In this document: positions 14,083 through 26,886 of the stretch, in pieces
Position numbering within the stretch: the stretch's first letter is position 1
Layout: every line of letters starts with the position of its first letter
DNA from: a virus
Lineage: Duplodnaviria; Heunggongvirae; Uroviricota; Caudoviricetes
Length of the DNA stretch: 26,886 nt
Virus record (IMG/VR): IMGVR_UViG_3300012942_000037
Location: 77,245 to 104,130 of that record
Direction: 5' to 3' (one strand)
The notes under the pieces: generated by a model
Database searches by the model: none
What the model was told of the DNA's origin: nothing
What the model saw: only the letters and a program-made list of their open reading frames with translations
Translations under genes and position numbers: made by a program

Positions 14083-14649
14083 ATGACTATTGGAATTGGC
14101 ATACACCTGCCCCACAGTTGGGCTAAGAAGCGCTCCATGAAATGGTTCTCGAGTTGGACTCACGGTAAGCTCACCGAGAATAAGGCATGGGAATGGCAGA
14201 CCGATTATTTCGGTTGGAACACCCTATTCAGCCTTGACCTGGATCTGATACCCACGGGGTATGATCACGCAGGTATTGGTTTCAGCCTTACCATTCTGGG
14301 CTTCATGGTTGAAGCTAAGATCTACGATTCTCGACATTGGGATTATGAGAATGGCACCTGGGAGAAGTATGACGAGGAGTCTATGAAGGCTCGCATGTCA
14401 CGCGACGACCAACGTCGTGCTGATGAACTCGATCATGCCTACCGATTGGTTAAGGCTGATGGTCACCAGCAGGTGCTGAAGAGTGCCGAAGAATTCCTCG
14501 AATCTCCTCAGGGACAGGCTCTGATCGACCGTAAGGTCAAGGCAAAGCTCGAGGAACAGCGACAGAGCAAAGACGCCAAACGTGCTCGTGGAGAAGCCTA
14601 CAGAAGGGCTAATCTTGCTTCTCAGGCTGGAGATTCTGATGCTGGTTGA
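14083..14649 (+). CDS. hypothetical protein (Trp-rich N-half, charged C-half)
   Basis: ORF directly after the promoter; coupled to the ARH gene. Confidence 0.75.
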   Translation: MTIGIGIHLPHSWAKKRSMKWFSSWTHGKLTENKAWEWQTDYFGWNTLFSLDLDLIPTGYDHAGIGFSLTILGFMVEAKIYDSRHWDYENGTWEKYDEESMKARMSRDDQRRADELDHAYRLVKADGHQQVLKSAEEFLESPQGQALIDRKVKAKLEEQRQSKDAKRARGEAYRRANLASQAGDSDAG

Positions 14650-15532
14650 GATGGCTGTGGCTGATGCCTATGCTATCGCCTGGGAATTCACTGACCAGCA
14701 AAAGGCCGAGAACGATCTAACTGGCTTCCATCAGCATCCTACCTATGCTGAACTCAAAGCGGGTCAATATACTGACGATACCCAGCGATCGATCGCAAAT
14801 GCCCAAGTTCTGCTGGGTCCACCTGAGAATCGTTTCAATCCACTGATCTATGCCCAGGCTTACTTGGAGCAGGTTCGTATGGACCCCAGGGAGGGATATT
14901 CACGCGGTTATCAGGCCTTCCTCAAGAGCGTCAACCACCCTTTGGATTTTCTGGTTCAGATCGAGCGCACCAAGACTAGTAATGGTTCTCTGATGGGTGT
15001 CGCACCCATGGGCTTTCTTCCAGACCTTCGTGAGGTCAAGCTGGCTGCGATGATCCAGGCCATAACTACCCATCATCCAGATACCGTGATCCATGCCCAG
15101 CTGGTGGCAATGGCTGTTCACTATTTCACACATTGCCAGGGTGATCAAGATGGCTTGATCCAGTGGTTACTTACCAATGCGGCGTTCGCGAATACTAGTC
15201 AGGCTGATAGCTGGCTAAGGGACGTTGAGGGTTTCAAGCATGGCGGGCGCACTGGTATAAAGGCCAGCAGCATCAGCGCCTGGATGGCATGGGCAGTTAG
15301 TGAGTTCACGAGCTTGAAGGAGATCATCTACTGGTCTGTCGAGGCCGGTGGTGACACTGACAGCGCGGCGGCAGTCGCGGTAGCCGTAGCAAGCTGCGCA
15401 CCCGATGACGAGATTGAAAAGGATATTCCGGAGAATCTGAAGGTAGCTCTCGATGCTGCTAACCCTGGGTTTGGTGTGGAATACCTCAACACCATCGAGC
15501 ATAAGCTGCGTCTGATGTATAAGATAGGTTGA
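14639..15532 (+). CDS. ADP-ribosylglycohydrolase (ARH/DraG family)
   Basis: AVADA...WEF, YTDDTQ, SNGSLMGVAP, THH and GGDTDSAAAVA motifs; SD GGAG before ATG 14639. Confidence 0.92.
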   Translation: MLVEMAVADAYAIAWEFTDQQKAENDLTGFHQHPTYAELKAGQYTDDTQRSIANAQVLLGPPENRFNPLIYAQAYLEQVRMDPREGYSRGYQAFLKSVNHPLDFLVQIERTKTSNGSLMGVAPMGFLPDLREVKLAAMIQAITTHHPDTVIHAQLVAMAVHYFTHCQGDQDGLIQWLLTNAAFANTSQADSWLRDVEGFKHGGRTGIKASSISAWMAWAVSEFTSLKEIIYWSVEAGGDTDSAAAVAVAVASCAPDDEIEKDIPENLKVALDAANPGFGVEYLNTIEHKLRLMYKIG

Positions 15533-17278: not shown

Positions 17279-17307
17279 TTGACATCTAAGCCAATCCCCC
17301 GTATATT
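17279..17307 (+). promoter_or_regulatory. sigma70 promoter, back-to-back with a minus-strand late promoter
   Basis: TTGACA-N17-TATATT. Confidence 0.7.
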
Positions 17308-17365
17308 GGATCTATGACCAGACAGAGACCCCTACCAAGGCGCTAAATACTTCGCGCCCCTGCCC

Positions 17366-17860
17366 GTGGATCGGGACTTGGGTCTTCTAAGCCTGAAGTT
17401 GGTGAGTTCGATTCTCCCCAGGGGCTCCAATTTTGGAGTTATCATGGACGCGGTCATAAACACATTCCAGCCAGATCAACGAGATTCATTTGGCCAGTAT
17501 GTGATCCTACCTGGCCACATCCATGTCTTCCCCTTCACTATTCCATTCTTGGGTAAGGTGTGCTTGGAGCTCACTCATATCCTACCTAATAGCCAAGACT
17601 TCTCGATTGATGCCTGGGTATCTGATAGACCCTTGGATGGTTTGGTCTTACGCAGGGATATAGGCCATTTTAGGCTGATCCGTCGTCAAACCGTCTTTGA
17701 AATCCACGATGAATGTCTCAAAGCTGGTGACCATGATACTCGCCTTTTTCTTAGGAGTGGTCAGACCTTTTACGTGAATGTGAAGGATCTCCAGAACCGC
17801 AAGAATGCCTATGAGCTCTTCATTGAAGAGGTTGCTCATAATCCCCCTCCAGTTACCTAA
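17366..17860 (+). CDS. hypothetical protein (start uncertain)
   Basis: Frame is open from 17318; GTG 17366 has no SD; see the frameshift finding. Confidence 0.6.
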   Translation: MDRDLGLLSLKLVSSILPRGSNFGVIMDAVINTFQPDQRDSFGQYVILPGHIHVFPFTIPFLGKVCLELTHILPNSQDFSIDAWVSDRPLDGLVLRRDIGHFRLIRRQTVFEIHDECLKAGDHDTRLFLRSGQTFYVNVKDLQNRKNAYELFIEEVAHNPPPVT

Positions 17861-24273: not shown

Positions 24274-25395
24274 ATGCGCTGGTCTGAAATTGTGACAGAG
24301 AGATGGATAACTGAAGAGCAGGTCAGCAAAGAGGGATCCATGTGGGTGGGATACCACCGCACCAAACCAGACAATTTGGAGCAGATCCAAAACAAAGGCT
24401 TTGTGGTTTCTAACCCTGACGAACAAGCCTACGGGCCAGGTGCTTATGCCTGCTTGGATTGGAAATCAATAACCAATGGGCCAGTCAACCTCTGGGGCTC
24501 GATGGTGTTGAAGGTAAAAATGAATCTACATGGATGTTTGGTTCTAGATGTCGATCTTGCCAAGCAGATCTATGGTGAAAAATCATCGCTTGAAGATCAG
24601 TTCAAGATGTTTGGTCTTCCTTTGGGGGAAATACCTGAGCTGCGAGCCCAGGCCCAGGGAGATTATGATGACGAAGATGATGATGATGATGATCCATATG
24701 CTGGTACTTACTCAGCTATGACACGCCGCGCTGCCGTCCTATTCTACGACTCGAACAAGATTAAGGGACTGGTTTACAACTGCCCAAATGATGGTAACGC
24801 AGTTGTGATGTGGAATCCAAAAGACATGATTCCGTTCGCCTATGCTGAAGACGTGAAGCCTGGGGCGGATCTCTCTTCAGTTAGCTGGACTAAACTTACA
24901 TCTGTTCCAATCGGTAAGGGATCAAACAGCAAACTACCTAAGTTTTCCAAAGGTCGGGATGGCAATACCTTGGAAAAGATGGGTAACCGTAAGAAGACGC
25001 CTCTGAATTCTCACGAAATGTTACACTATCTCAAAAAGTTCAACATCGGTCTTCATGATCTCAAAAACATGGGCTTCACGGTTGATGATGATCTTGCTAA
25101 TAAGATATGGAAAACAAAAGAGATCGGTGGAGTCTTAAAGAATGATCTACTGGTTGCGGGTCTTGGTTCTCCGTCAAATTCGGATCTGATTAGCGCAATA
25201 GCTAACGACAATACTGGTAATCTTATTATGACACTTGCCCACAAGGGACCGATTAACCAACAGATGCTTGACGCGGCAGTGAAATCTAAGGTCAGAGGGG
25301 TGGCCTATACTAGCCTTCAAGGCTATGCCAAAAAGAACGGCTTGAAGTTTGAACTGGATCCGGCGCGAACCGCGACACCACCGGTATCGCGATAG
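24274..25395 (+). CDS. ADP-ribosyltransferase-fold protein (H-Y class, ART-PolyVal-like), late, MRWSEIVTE N-terminus
   Basis: GYHRT...GF...YGPGAY, WGS.VLKVKMNL, KGLVY...DG..VVMWNP; CTAAATA at 24245-24251; SD GGAGG. Confidence 0.65.
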   Translation: MRWSEIVTERWITEEQVSKEGSMWVGYHRTKPDNLEQIQNKGFVVSNPDEQAYGPGAYACLDWKSITNGPVNLWGSMVLKVKMNLHGCLVLDVDLAKQIYGEKSSLEDQFKMFGLPLGEIPELRAQAQGDYDDEDDDDDDPYAGTYSAMTRRAAVLFYDSNKIKGLVYNCPNDGNAVVMWNPKDMIPFAYAEDVKPGADLSSVSWTKLTSVPIGKGSNSKLPKFSKGRDGNTLEKMGNRKKTPLNSHEMLHYLKKFNIGLHDLKNMGFTVDDDLANKIWKTKEIGGVLKNDLLVAGLGSPSNSDLISAIANDNTGNLIMTLAHKGPINQQMLDAAVKSKVRGVAYTSLQGYAKKNGLKFELDPARTATPPVSR

Positions 25396-25709: not shown

Positions 25710-25790
25710 CAAAGACAGAGCGAGGAAAGAAATTTTCTCGAAATGTCGAAAAAGTGCTTGACGGATCATTCGGCAGGCATAAATAGAAAC

Positions 25791-26078
25791 ACAGATGCCG
25801 CTTTTGGCATCACGAGTTTTGAAGGGAATTAGTTTTCTATGTTACACCTAGGGACCCATATGGAATGTGGAAAGGCCGGCTTGAAAGCCGTATCCTTTAC
25901 CACAGCCGCTATGGGCACCGAATGGTCGCAGCGTAGTGAGCAAATTACCCGCCCAGTCAGCTATAAGCCTAATACGCTTGATACGACCGGGGCCGAACCA
26001 GACGGAGGAAGTGGTTTTTAACTACTAAATCTCCAGACAGGTTTCAAAGGCCCCGGTAGGAAACTACCGGGGCCTTTT
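25791..26078 (+). ncRNA. candidate ~290-nt structured RNA
   Basis: Strong promoter 25749-25785 and terminator; stems GATGCC/GGCATC, CCCATA/TATGGG, TGTGG-AAAGG/CCTTT-CCACA, GGC-TTGAAA-GCC. Confidence 0.55.
26046..26078 (+). terminator. intrinsic terminator
   Basis: AAAGGCCCCGGTAG-GAAA-CTACCGGGGCCTTTT. Confidence 0.9.
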
Positions 26079-26135
26079 ATTTCAACCCGCCGAAGCGAAA
26101 GCCTAGGCACTAGCAGAAAAAGTTTAGAAGCAACG

Positions 26136-26173
26136 AAAAAGTTGTTGACAAGCTCTAGAAACCCTGCTAGGAT
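26136..26173 (+). promoter_or_regulatory. strong sigma70 promoter of the tRNA array
   Basis: AAAAAGTTG-TTGACA-N17-TAGGAT; a second promoter TTGACA-N18-TAGCGT lies at 26244-26273. Confidence 0.75.
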
Positions 26174-26339
26174 AAGATCGGACGGAGATGTGCTAGTCAC
26201 AACGACGTCTTCCGTTAGAAGTGGAAATTTCCAACGGAACAAATTGACAAACTTCTGACGAAACGCCTAGCGTGAAGTTGGTTGTAAGTCAAGTGGTATA
26301 GCGGAACGAGACTGCGGGATAGCCACTTTAAATAAACCC

Positions 26340-26485
26340 GAATGGGCGGTGCCGAGGATGAAACCGGGCGGTTAAAGAACCCCGGGAGTAAAATTCAGAT
26401 GCGCATAGCATCCTAGGGCAAGACGGGACATAGTGATCCCGTAGGCGGTCAACCCCGAAATGCCGGGGAACATAGATCGCACACC
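26340..26485 (+). ncRNA. candidate multi-hairpin RNA ahead of tRNA-Pro
   Basis: GGTG/CACC closure, CCGGGCGGTT/AACCCCGG, GATGC/GCATC, ACGGGA/TCCCGT, CCCCG/CGGGG; no plausible ORF. Confidence 0.5.
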
Positions 26486-26506
26486 AAAAACAAAAGGCTA
26501 AATCAT

Positions 26507-26583
26507 CGGGGTATAGCGCAGCCAGGTAGCGCGTTCGTCTGGGGGACGAGAGGTCGCAGGTTCGAACCCTGCTATCCCGACCA
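26507..26583 (+). tRNA. tRNA-Pro(GGG), CCA encoded
   Basis: C1-G72, TTCGT-CTGGGGG-ACGAG, GGTTCGAACCC, A73. Confidence 0.95.
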
Positions 26584-26596
26584 AACAAGTTTACAT

Positions 26597-26681
26597 TCCG
26601 GTGTGGTGAAATTGGTAGATACGCTCGGCTGTTAACCGAGTGCCGCAAGGCGTGGAGGTTCGAGTCCTTCCACCGGAGCCA
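26597..26681 (+). tRNA. tRNA-Asn(GTT) with long variable arm, CCA encoded
   Basis: TCCGGTG/CACCGGA, CTCGG-CTGTTAA-CCGAG, V arm GCC-GCAA-GGC, GGTTCGAGTCC, G73. Confidence 0.9.
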
Positions 26682-26768: not shown

Positions 26769-26845
26769 CTAGGTGTGGCCCAATCAGGTAAGGCGTTCCC
26801 TTCGGGAGGGAGAGATTGGAGGTTCGAATCCTCTCACCTAGACCA
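26769..26845 (+). tRNA. tRNA-Pro(CGG), CCA encoded
   Basis: CTAGGTG/CACCTAG, TTCCC-TTCGGGA-GGGAG, GGTTCGAATCC, A73. Confidence 0.95.
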
Positions 26846-26852
26846 ACAACAT

Positions 26853-26886
26853 GCGCGGTTAGCACAATGGTAGTGCGACCGGCCGA
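26853..26886 (+). tRNA. 5' part of a further tRNA, truncated by the window (anticodon probably GAn)
   Basis: GCGCGGT-TA-GCAC-AATGGTA-GTGC-G-ACCGG-CC-GA; isotype cannot be assigned. Confidence 0.7.

Follow-up and report, generated by a model that had tools for sequence, protein, structure and literature searches.

A phage tRNA-Asn gene with a class II tRNA-Leu-type body and asparagine identity elements

In bacteria, long variable arms are, according to the textbook, restricted to the tRNAs for Leu, Ser, Tyr, and Sec. The nematode V-arm tRNAs and the CUG-clade tRNA-Ser(CAG) combine a long variable (V) arm with an unexpected anticodon. The allo-tRNAs (8/4 and 9/3; PMC5389517) also carry a long V arm together with an anticodon outside the four textbook isotypes. 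All of these tRNAs keep the identity of their body (Ser, Leu, or Ala) and thus recode or mistranslate. The present study concerns a gene in which, in contrast, the acceptor identity matches the anticodon and not the body. This tRNA-Asn(GUU) gene lies in a 26,886-nt stretch of phage DNA (the window), which is the final 27 kb of the 104-kb IMG/VR viral contig IMGVR_UViG_3300012942_000037, rated 22% complete. Position numbers are window coordinates. The tRNA array region of the window is syntenic with contigs of 125, 416, 462, and 465 kb (68-88% identity), which places the phage in a clade of very large phages (megaphages). No description of a long-arm tRNA-Asn was found in open-access papers and preprints, and the design seems to be undescribed.

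The other closely related systems are phage isodecoders of tRNAs that are depleted by bacterial defences. The tRNA-Lys, tRNA-Thr, and tRNA-Asn of phage T5 acting against PARIS AriB (PMC11464382, PMC12409363; the Asn part, which concerns the anticodon stem, in PMC12409363, as PMC11464382 mentions neither Asn nor variable arms), a phage tRNA-Thr acting against P2-OLD (PMC12445682), and the T5 tRNA-Tyr acting against retron-Eco7 and Septu (PMC13096335) are all altered, with their identity kept. Host tRNA-Asn(GUU) is a secondary target of AriB, which cuts it between residues 40 and 41 at the motif U36-A-A-U39, and PARIS is neutralised by the T5 tRNAs for Lys, Thr, and Asn acting jointly (PMC12409363). 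P2-OLD cuts tRNA-Asn in vitro, and phage tRNAs rescue (PMC12445682), while the T5 tRNA-Tyr evades retron-Eco7 via its distinctive variable loop (PMC13096335). The escapes known so far consist of point changes, either in the anticodon stem or in a variable loop that already existed. In contrast, the window gene has the whole D/V core of another isotype.

ARAGORN called five tRNAs in the window, including the tRNA-Asn(gtt). The gene matched the Rfam model RF00005 with 51.1 bits (E 2e-8; gathering threshold 29), and the surplus residues were placed in the variable region. The whole gene reads UCCGGUG-UG-GUG-AAAUUGGUAGA-UAC-G-CUCGG-CUGUUAA-CCGAG-UGCCGCAAGGCGU-GGAGG-UUCGAGU-CCUUC-CACCGGA-G-CCA (Table 1). 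Its D stem has three base pairs (G10-C25, U11-A24, and G12.U23) with A.A at position 13.22, and its 11-nt D loop is of the Leu type. The variable region is 13 nt in length and ends in a U residue in the U48 position, which can pair with A15, and the helices have the standard 7/5 lengths. The asparagine marks are U1-A72, C2-G71, G73, and the GUU anticodon in a 7-nt loop with U33 and A37. Every detail that an earlier note on this DNA had listed for a Leu-type structure (the 3-bp D stem, the D loop, A15-U48, A20a, G21, and the 13-nt V region) and all of the asparagine elements that it had named are present in the sequence. In minimum free energy folding of the lone tRNA sequence, the z score was -0.66 and the D stem was absent from the predicted fold.

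The window gene is a module hybrid, in which the D/V core of a class II tRNA-Leu is combined with the acceptor, anticodon, and T parts of a tRNA-Asn. It was aligned with a canonical 76-nt Gordonia phage tRNA-Asn and the cyanophage C48C1 tRNA-Leu. The acceptor and anticodon stems are identical to those of the Gordonia phage tRNA-Asn, while the D arm and the V arm follow the C48C1 tRNA-Leu, with an identical V region. Canonical class I tRNA-Asn species, as found in the Gordonia phages Cucurbita and Smoothie and on the chromosomes of Rhizobacter, Piscinibacter, and Bradyrhizobium, share with the window gene the CUGUUAA loop, U1-A72, C2-G71, C3-G70, G73, and the CCA tail. However, they are 75-76 nt in length and have U8-A9, a 4-bp D stem, a D loop of 8-9 nt without residue 20a, and a 5-nt V loop (in hosts and phages alike), whereas the window gene is 85 nt in length, has U8-G9 and a 13-nt hairpin arm in addition to its 3-bp D stem and Leu-type D loop, and does not have a class I body. 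Bacterial and phage class II tRNA-Leu species (among them the C48C1 tRNA-Leu(UAG) and the tRNA-Leu found in arrays of the megaphage clade) share with it U8-G9, the 3-bp D stem, the GAAnUGGUAGA loop, A15/U48, and a V arm of 11-16 nt with a GNRA loop. Since tRNA-Leu has G1-C72, A73, and Leu anticodons in place of U1-A72, G73, and GUU, the window gene is without the main determinant for leucyl-tRNA synthetase (LeuRS).

Segment similarities were computed over 623 distinct tRNAs. The D-arm segment was similar to that of long tRNA-Leu (mean 0.74, maximum 0.90), compared with 0.44 for tRNA-Ser, 0.47 for tRNA-Tyr, and 0.53 for canonical tRNA-Asn. The best match of the acceptor, anticodon stem, and T arm was canonical phage tRNA-Asn, with a similarity of 0.93. 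As a stand-in for scoring isotype versus anticodon, a check that the earlier note had proposed, I used two covariance models, R1 made from 26 class II tRNA-Leu and R2 made from 14 canonical tRNA-Asn. With R1, the window tRNA scored 74.7 bits and was the top match outside the training set, while a canonical tRNA-Asn scored 28.6 bits. With R2, it scored 61.2 bits versus 22-40 bits for true long tRNA-Leu, and only this Asn-versus-Leu contrast is meaningful, as R2 separates class I tRNAs poorly (generic class I tRNAs score 55-71 bits). All 14 canonical tRNA-Asn of the R2 set have G73 and all 26 tRNA-Leu of the R1 set have A73. These scores bear out a Leu body with Asn identity and support the idea of an identity-switched tRNA put forward in the earlier note. 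Having neither A73 nor a Leu anticodon (NAG or YAA), the window tRNA is not a tRNA-Leu by those criteria. It is not of the Ser type, as its 13-nt V arm has a stem of 3-4 bp and C2-G71 replaces G2-C71, nor is it of the allo-tRNA type, as it has 7/5 helices and a Leu-type D arm.

The same division was found in three bacterial genera. In Rhizobacter, Piscinibacter, and Bradyrhizobium, the long tRNA-Asn shares U1, C2, and C3 (UCC...GGA), G73, and the anticodon with the chromosomal tRNA-Asn, while, in common with tRNA-Leu (GCC...GGC-A73), it has U8-G9, the D arm with its 3-bp stem, and the V arm. The Rhizobacter copy also has a T arm identical to that of the neighbouring tRNA-Leu(gag).

Is this design common in phages? 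A strict search pattern (GGTAGA, nine bases, CTGTTAA, 19-30 bases, GGTTCGA) gave matches in 32 viral contigs and, among about 186,000 genomes of bacterial species, in 12. The defining pattern had one match in the window and none in 100 shuffles. About 30 of the 32 viral matches and 11 of the 12 bacterial matches were called by ARAGORN as tRNA-Asn of 81-88 nt, nearly all of them within dense tRNA arrays. Cultured carriers are the Pseudomonas phiPsa374 group, Acinetobacter phage Acibel004, and Brevundimonas jumbo phages. The survey of related phages that the earlier note had suggested has thus shown the design in viral contigs, bacterial genomes, and cultured phages. The family was defined by the GUU anticodon, U1-A72, G73, U8-G9, a 3-bp D stem, a Leu-type D loop, a hairpin V arm ending in U, and a location in a phage or mobile array. 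It has 38 distinct members, and the window gene has all of the defining features. Two lone long-arm GTT tRNAs outside arrays, in an Acetobacteraceae metagenome-assembled genome (MAG) (L042 3153-3239) and a Devosia MAG (L043 2414-2497), have G1-C72 with G73 instead of U1-A72, an identity set unlike that of the phage family.

Base pairs were counted from anchor-based segments, and a MAFFT alignment was set aside because it had gaps inside the D and V stems. U1-A72, which is not imposed by the search pattern, was found in 36 of the 38 members, while the other acceptor pairs vary freely with compensatory changes. G73 was found in 36 of 39 family calls, and two of the three exceptions are mis-registered ARAGORN calls. 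U8-G9, A14-A15, and the terminal U of the V region, which the pattern does not impose either, are nearly invariant. Across the family, pairing amounts to 92-100% in the acceptor, D, anticodon, and T stems (97-100% in the T stem). At the more variable stem positions, canonical pairs make up 92-100% versus 38-78% with shuffled partners, and many compensatory pair types are present. The V arm has a stem of 2-5 bp with compensatory changes and mostly a GNRA tetraloop. Except in two calls, its size is 11-16 nt, the range of array tRNA-Leu, whereas array tRNA-Ser have arms of 15-24 nt with stems of 4-7 bp. The T loop is kept invariant, and the 7-nt anticodon loop with U33 and A37 is intact. In the closest relative, L004 on another contig, the same gene has a compensatory V-stem pair (gcC..Ggc to gcT..Agc). 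The covariation of the stems and the near-invariance of the asparagine marks indicate that the family is under selection. The earlier note had allowed that the extra arm might be an assembly artefact or that such tRNAs might be common and charge normally as Asn. An artefact is excluded, since the gene is found again, with compensatory changes, in independent contigs and in cultured phages, and the arm is kept in 37 further members. Of the second possibility, the commonness in phages was confirmed by the 32 viral contigs.

Is the Leu-type body used for other isotypes? When the Leu-type pattern was searched with other anticodon loops, GTC (Asp) was found in 2 contigs, one of them with a real tRNA, and YTT (Lys) in none, compared with the 32 contigs for GTT. 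Thus, the Leu-bodied design is particular to Asn. The real Asp match, in a viral contig of 143 kb (L082 203-293), is a rare 91-nt tRNA-Asp(GUC) whose D loop is of the Leu type and whose variable region is long. Long arms on other array isotypes (Lys, Trp, Gln, Met, and Cys) sit on different bodies and are enriched in Lys (7/29 versus 5/404 in all other class I isotypes, p = 2e-6). The long-arm tRNA-Lys species mostly have a 4-bp D stem instead of a Leu-type D arm, and often have U as the discriminator. In the megaphage relatives, one of them lies just downstream of the Pro-Asn(long)-Pro block. Conversely, 27 of the 54 array tRNA-Leu have a class I body with a V loop of 5-7 nt and mostly U8-A9 and a 4-bp D stem, and nearly all of them have A73. 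Body class is thus swapped in both directions in phage arrays.

The array of the window has the order Ala(UGC), an 800-nt gap, Pro(GGG), Asn(long), Pro(CGG), and a tRNA truncated by the contig end. The order Pro(GGG)-Asn(long)-Pro(CGG) is common to L004, L010, L019, and L027. Four relatives are complete genomes of 416-465 kb with 39-60 tRNAs each (G002-G005, loci L050-L068; G002 is that of 416 kb). The closest ones (G002, G003, and G004; 68-88% identical to the window here) each have a canonical tRNA-Asn (72-75 nt) and a long tRNA-Asn (83 nt), and likewise have canonical and long tRNA-Lys(CUU). G005 and large arrays (L011 and L035, for example) have no tRNA-Asn other than the long form. This is also the case in the Piscinibacter array L045, whose 31 tRNAs cover all 20 amino acids. 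In Rhizobacter, Piscinibacter, and Bradyrhizobium, one to three canonical tRNA-Asn are on the chromosome and one long copy is in the array. Sinorhizobium phage Phosso has only class I tRNA-Asn. All of G002-G005 also have two or three CUA-anticodon tRNAs (amber suppressors, labelled 'Pyl' by ARAGORN), which suggests some TAG recoding in the clade; the ORFs of the window read well under table 11.

How might such a tRNA be charged? Bacterial Asn identity consists of the anticodon and G73 and is transplantable to another tRNA; U1-A72 is a determinant for the amidotransferase GatCAB, G73 is an antideterminant for LeuRS and tyrosyl-tRNA synthetase (TyrRS), and C2-G71 is an antideterminant for seryl-tRNA synthetase (SerRS) (PMC9976931). 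Asparaginyl-tRNA synthetase (AsnRS) was found over the cut-off in none of the five array-bearing bacterial genomes (best 91 bits versus 342.6), and the model passes in six control genomes. In contrast, GatB was found in all five, with 496-543 bits. Thus, charging of the tRNA in these hosts must begin with aspartylation by a non-discriminating aspartyl-tRNA synthetase (ND-AspRS) and be completed by amidation, and this indirect pathway fits the strict conservation of U1-A72. A private synthetase linked to the gene was rejected as a candidate: there is no PF00152 match in the contig of the window or in G003-G005, and G002 has only an AspRS of the bacterial type (G002:C1:328380-329711, L048; NF001750, 574 bits) about 20 kb from its main array.

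The reading that I favour, and hold to be reasonably probable, is that the gene encodes a working asparagine-decoding tRNA with a body from a class II tRNA-Leu, kept as a second source of Asn tRNA. To judge from its sequence, the tRNA probably still carries asparagine. The most likely origin would be a phage tRNA-Leu copy that changed its identity, and the side-by-side sharing with host tRNA-Asn and tRNA-Leu makes this the simplest one. G1-C72 would have been changed to U1-A72 and A73 to G73, and a new anticodon arm with GUU would have been acquired, while the tRNA-Leu would have passed on its D arm, its tertiary core (A15/U48), and its V arm, a short hairpin. I infer from the identity set that the tRNA would be charged via the asparagine route of the host, in the identifiable hosts by ND-AspRS and then GatCAB, and would read AAY codons. 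The weakest step is the advantage: a second, structurally distinct tRNA-Asn may be usable when defence nucleases or factors that read the tRNA body deplete the ordinary tRNA-Asn. Such an advantage fits the closest complete genomes, in which a canonical phage tRNA-Asn is present as well.

By analogy with the phage tRNAs described above, escape from tRNA-cutting defences is a plausible role. The place where the extra arm leaves the tRNA is next to the 3' strand of the anticodon stem, near the 40|41 cut of AriB. A broader version, which I regard as doubtful though worth stating, is that phage arrays deliberately re-body the tRNAs depleted by Toprim/OLD-type and related nucleases, with Asn on a Leu-type class II core and Lys on a class I core plus an arm. 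The arm would exclude the nuclease sterically or geometrically, while recognition by the synthetase, GatCAB, EF-Tu, and the ribosome would be kept. Counter-defence of this kind would act through the whole tRNA scaffold and would thereby differ from the known escapes by point mutation.

Several points weigh against a working tRNA-Asn with such a role. Since class IIb synthetases approach the tRNA from the variable-loop side, AspRS or AsnRS could be hindered by a long arm. Residue 20a is an extra residue of the Leu-type D loop, and an extra D-loop residue is a listed GatCAB antideterminant in tRNA-Asp (PMC9976931). The very hosts that rely on GatCAB could thus be those in which amidation suffers. 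The U36-A-A-U39 motif of AriB is kept in 27 of the 38 family members. The known escapes from AriB and P2-OLD are anticodon-stem substitutions and not changes of the V arm (PMC12409363, PMC12445682), and some defences target variable arms themselves (PMC13096335). The phiPsa374 homologue is annotated as 'tRNA-Pseudo-GTT', which means that the automatic annotator evidently scored it as a pseudogene. Moreover, since the contig ends within the array and is 22% complete, the full tRNA set of the phage, including any canonical tRNA-Asn or long tRNA-Lys, is not visible.

The gene might instead be an ordinary working tRNA-Asn whose class II body is tolerated, as an accident of duplication and identity switching with no special benefit. 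Body class is indeed fluid in the arrays, as seen from the class I-bodied tRNA-Leu and the long arms on Lys, Trp, Gln, Met, and Cys, many arrays have no tRNA-Asn but the long form, as expected of a plain one, and phage Phosso manages with two class I tRNA-Asn genes. Pure redundancy, however, does not agree well with the retention of both canonical and long Asn, and likewise Lys, in G002, G003, and G004. The strong anticodon specificity of the Leu-type body and the concentration of the remaining long arms in Lys, another documented nuclease target, also weigh against it. Thus, I consider this neutral explanation rather unlikely.

A tRNA that reads AAY codons and delivers another residue is a further alternative, with Asp delivered if ND-AspRS charges the tRNA and GatCAB rejects the enlarged D loop, or Ser or Leu if a synthetase that reads class II tRNAs accepts it. 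Nematode V-arm tRNAs are natural mistranslating tRNAs. So are the allo-tRNAs (PMC5389517), and the Leu-type core, including A15-U48 and the placement of G18G19, is near to what Escherichia coli LeuRS reads (PMC9976931). The long arm with G73 resembles Ser identity, and the extra D-loop residue may act as a GatCAB antideterminant (PMC9976931) in hosts without an AsnRS over the cut-off. On the other hand, G73 and C2-G71 are antideterminants for LeuRS/TyrRS and SerRS, respectively, the V arms are Leu-sized and not Ser-sized, and the Asn marks are near-invariant. Hence, Ser or Leu mischarging, of which the earlier note had suggested the Ser part, is unlikely. The other part of its suggestion, unamidated Asp, is a live worry because the identifiable hosts rely on ND-AspRS and GatCAB only and because of residue 20a. 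Near-invariant U1-A72 and G73 among freely varying acceptor pairs point to selection for the Asn route, and proteome-wide Asn substitution in late phage proteins would be costly where the long form is the sole tRNA-Asn of a 20-amino-acid array. Deliberate mischarging is thus unlikely, and I consider a mistranslating tRNA improbable as a whole. A role outside translation seems no less improbable: the RNA would serve as a primer or regulatory RNA, or else as a decoy or competitive inhibitor for a nuclease that targets tRNAs or for some other host factor that binds them, without being a significant amino-acid donor. Inhibition of AriB by competition from overexpressed viral tRNAs has been raised (PMC12409363), and the pseudo-tRNA flag of the phiPsa374 homologue would suit a decoy. 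However, the full cloverleaf, the CCA, the invariant T loop, and the 7-nt anticodon loop with U33/A37 exceed the needs of an anticodon-arm decoy, the conserved acceptor identity marks would have no obvious use, and the long form is the sole tRNA-Asn in several large arrays.

Table 1. The long-arm tRNA-Asn gene with its parts and array neighbours (window coordinates), and array tRNAs of other isotypes with unusual bodies (locus coordinates).
Feature	Position	Strand	Basis
tRNA-Asn(GUU), class II body, 85 nt, encoded CCA	26597..26681	+	ARAGORN, Rfam RF00005, covariance models R1/R2
Acceptor 5' strand UCCGGUG (U1, C2, C3), partner 26671-26677	26597..26603	+	Sequence; same as canonical Gordonia phage tRNA-Asn acceptor
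U8-G9, Leu-type D arm (GUG/UAC, loop AAAUUGGUAGA with extra residue 20a), G26	26604..26623	+	Segment similarity to long tRNA-Leu
Anticodon arm, stem CUCGG/CCGAG, loop CUGUUAA; anticodon GUU at 26631-26633	26624..26640	+	Sequence, ARAGORN, Rfam; stem same as Gordonia phage tRNA-Asn
Variable arm UGCCGCAAGGCGU, 3-4 bp stem, GCAA (GNRA) tetraloop, terminal U (U48)	26641..26653	+	V region same as cyanophage C48C1 tRNA-Leu
T arm GGAGG-UUCGAGU-CCUUC	26654..26670	+	Sequence, Rfam
Acceptor 3' strand CACCGGA (A72), discriminator G73 (26678), CCA (26679-26681)	26671..26681	+	Sequence
tRNA-Pro(GGG), upstream array neighbour	26507..26583	+	ARAGORN, Rfam
tRNA-Pro(CGG), downstream array neighbour	26769..26845	+	ARAGORN, Rfam; 97.5% identical to copy in 416-kb relative
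Long-arm tRNA-Lys (CUU or UUU), 86-91 nt	L010 866-951; L019 5273-5359; L027 8025-8111; L017 3744-3829; L007 4778-4865; L041 2648-2831; L045 4144-4230		
Class I-bodied tRNA-Leu (27)	L008, L011, L017, L018, L023, L026, L036, L037, L041, L046, L050, L055, L060, L062, L066, L067		

Some other features of the window were noted. The 5' half of another tRNA lies at 26853-26886 (+), where it is cut by the contig end, and its counterpart is at L004 13446-13479. The related 125-kb contig stops at the same point, so that the assemblies break within the tRNA array. The 800-nt gap between the tRNA-Ala and the tRNA-Pro(GGG) (25711-26506) has no long ORF and is 68-88% identical across the megaphage relatives. 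Rfam gave nothing convincing in this gap, which may contain small ORFs or an unrecognised RNA. A TTGACA-17-TAGGAT site with an extended -10 element lies inside it (26145-26173), and the promoter scan near the array was at chance level (one site versus 1.2 expected). At 17356-17429 (+) there is a tRNA-like gene of atypical form, which encodes its CCA and has a UCU (Arg) anticodon loop; its acceptor stem and D arm follow each other without an 8-9 spacer. It was missed by ARAGORN and by the Rfam gathering threshold, while its homologue in L004 (5241-5312) was called a 72-nt tRNA-Arg(tct) by ARAGORN, and a TTGACA-17-TATATT site lies directly upstream (17279-17307). An ADP-ribosylglycohydrolase domain (PF03747, E = 4e-21) is clearly present in the ORF at 14582-15532 (+). 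No Pfam match was obtained for the ORF at 24274-25395, upstream of the array, and nine other large ORFs of the window that were tested had no significant one.

In summary, a conserved phage family puts a complete asparagine identity set on a tRNA-Leu body, against the textbook restriction of long arms. Since annotation pipelines label these genes as plain tRNA-Asn or 'pseudo', phage tRNA surveys miss them. What is new here is the quantified Leu/Asn hybrid signature, the control for anticodon specificity, and the finding that the indirect Asn pathway is alone in the identifiable hosts. If the tRNA is charged with asparagine, then a class II tRNA-Asn is acceptable to ND-AspRS or AsnRS, to GatCAB, to EF-Tu, and to the ribosome alike. 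This would bear on how those enzymes read the tRNA core and would give tRNA engineering a scaffold that occurs in nature. Should the body swap protect the tRNA from tRNA-cutting defences, it would be a new kind of move in the tRNA arms race between phages and bacteria.

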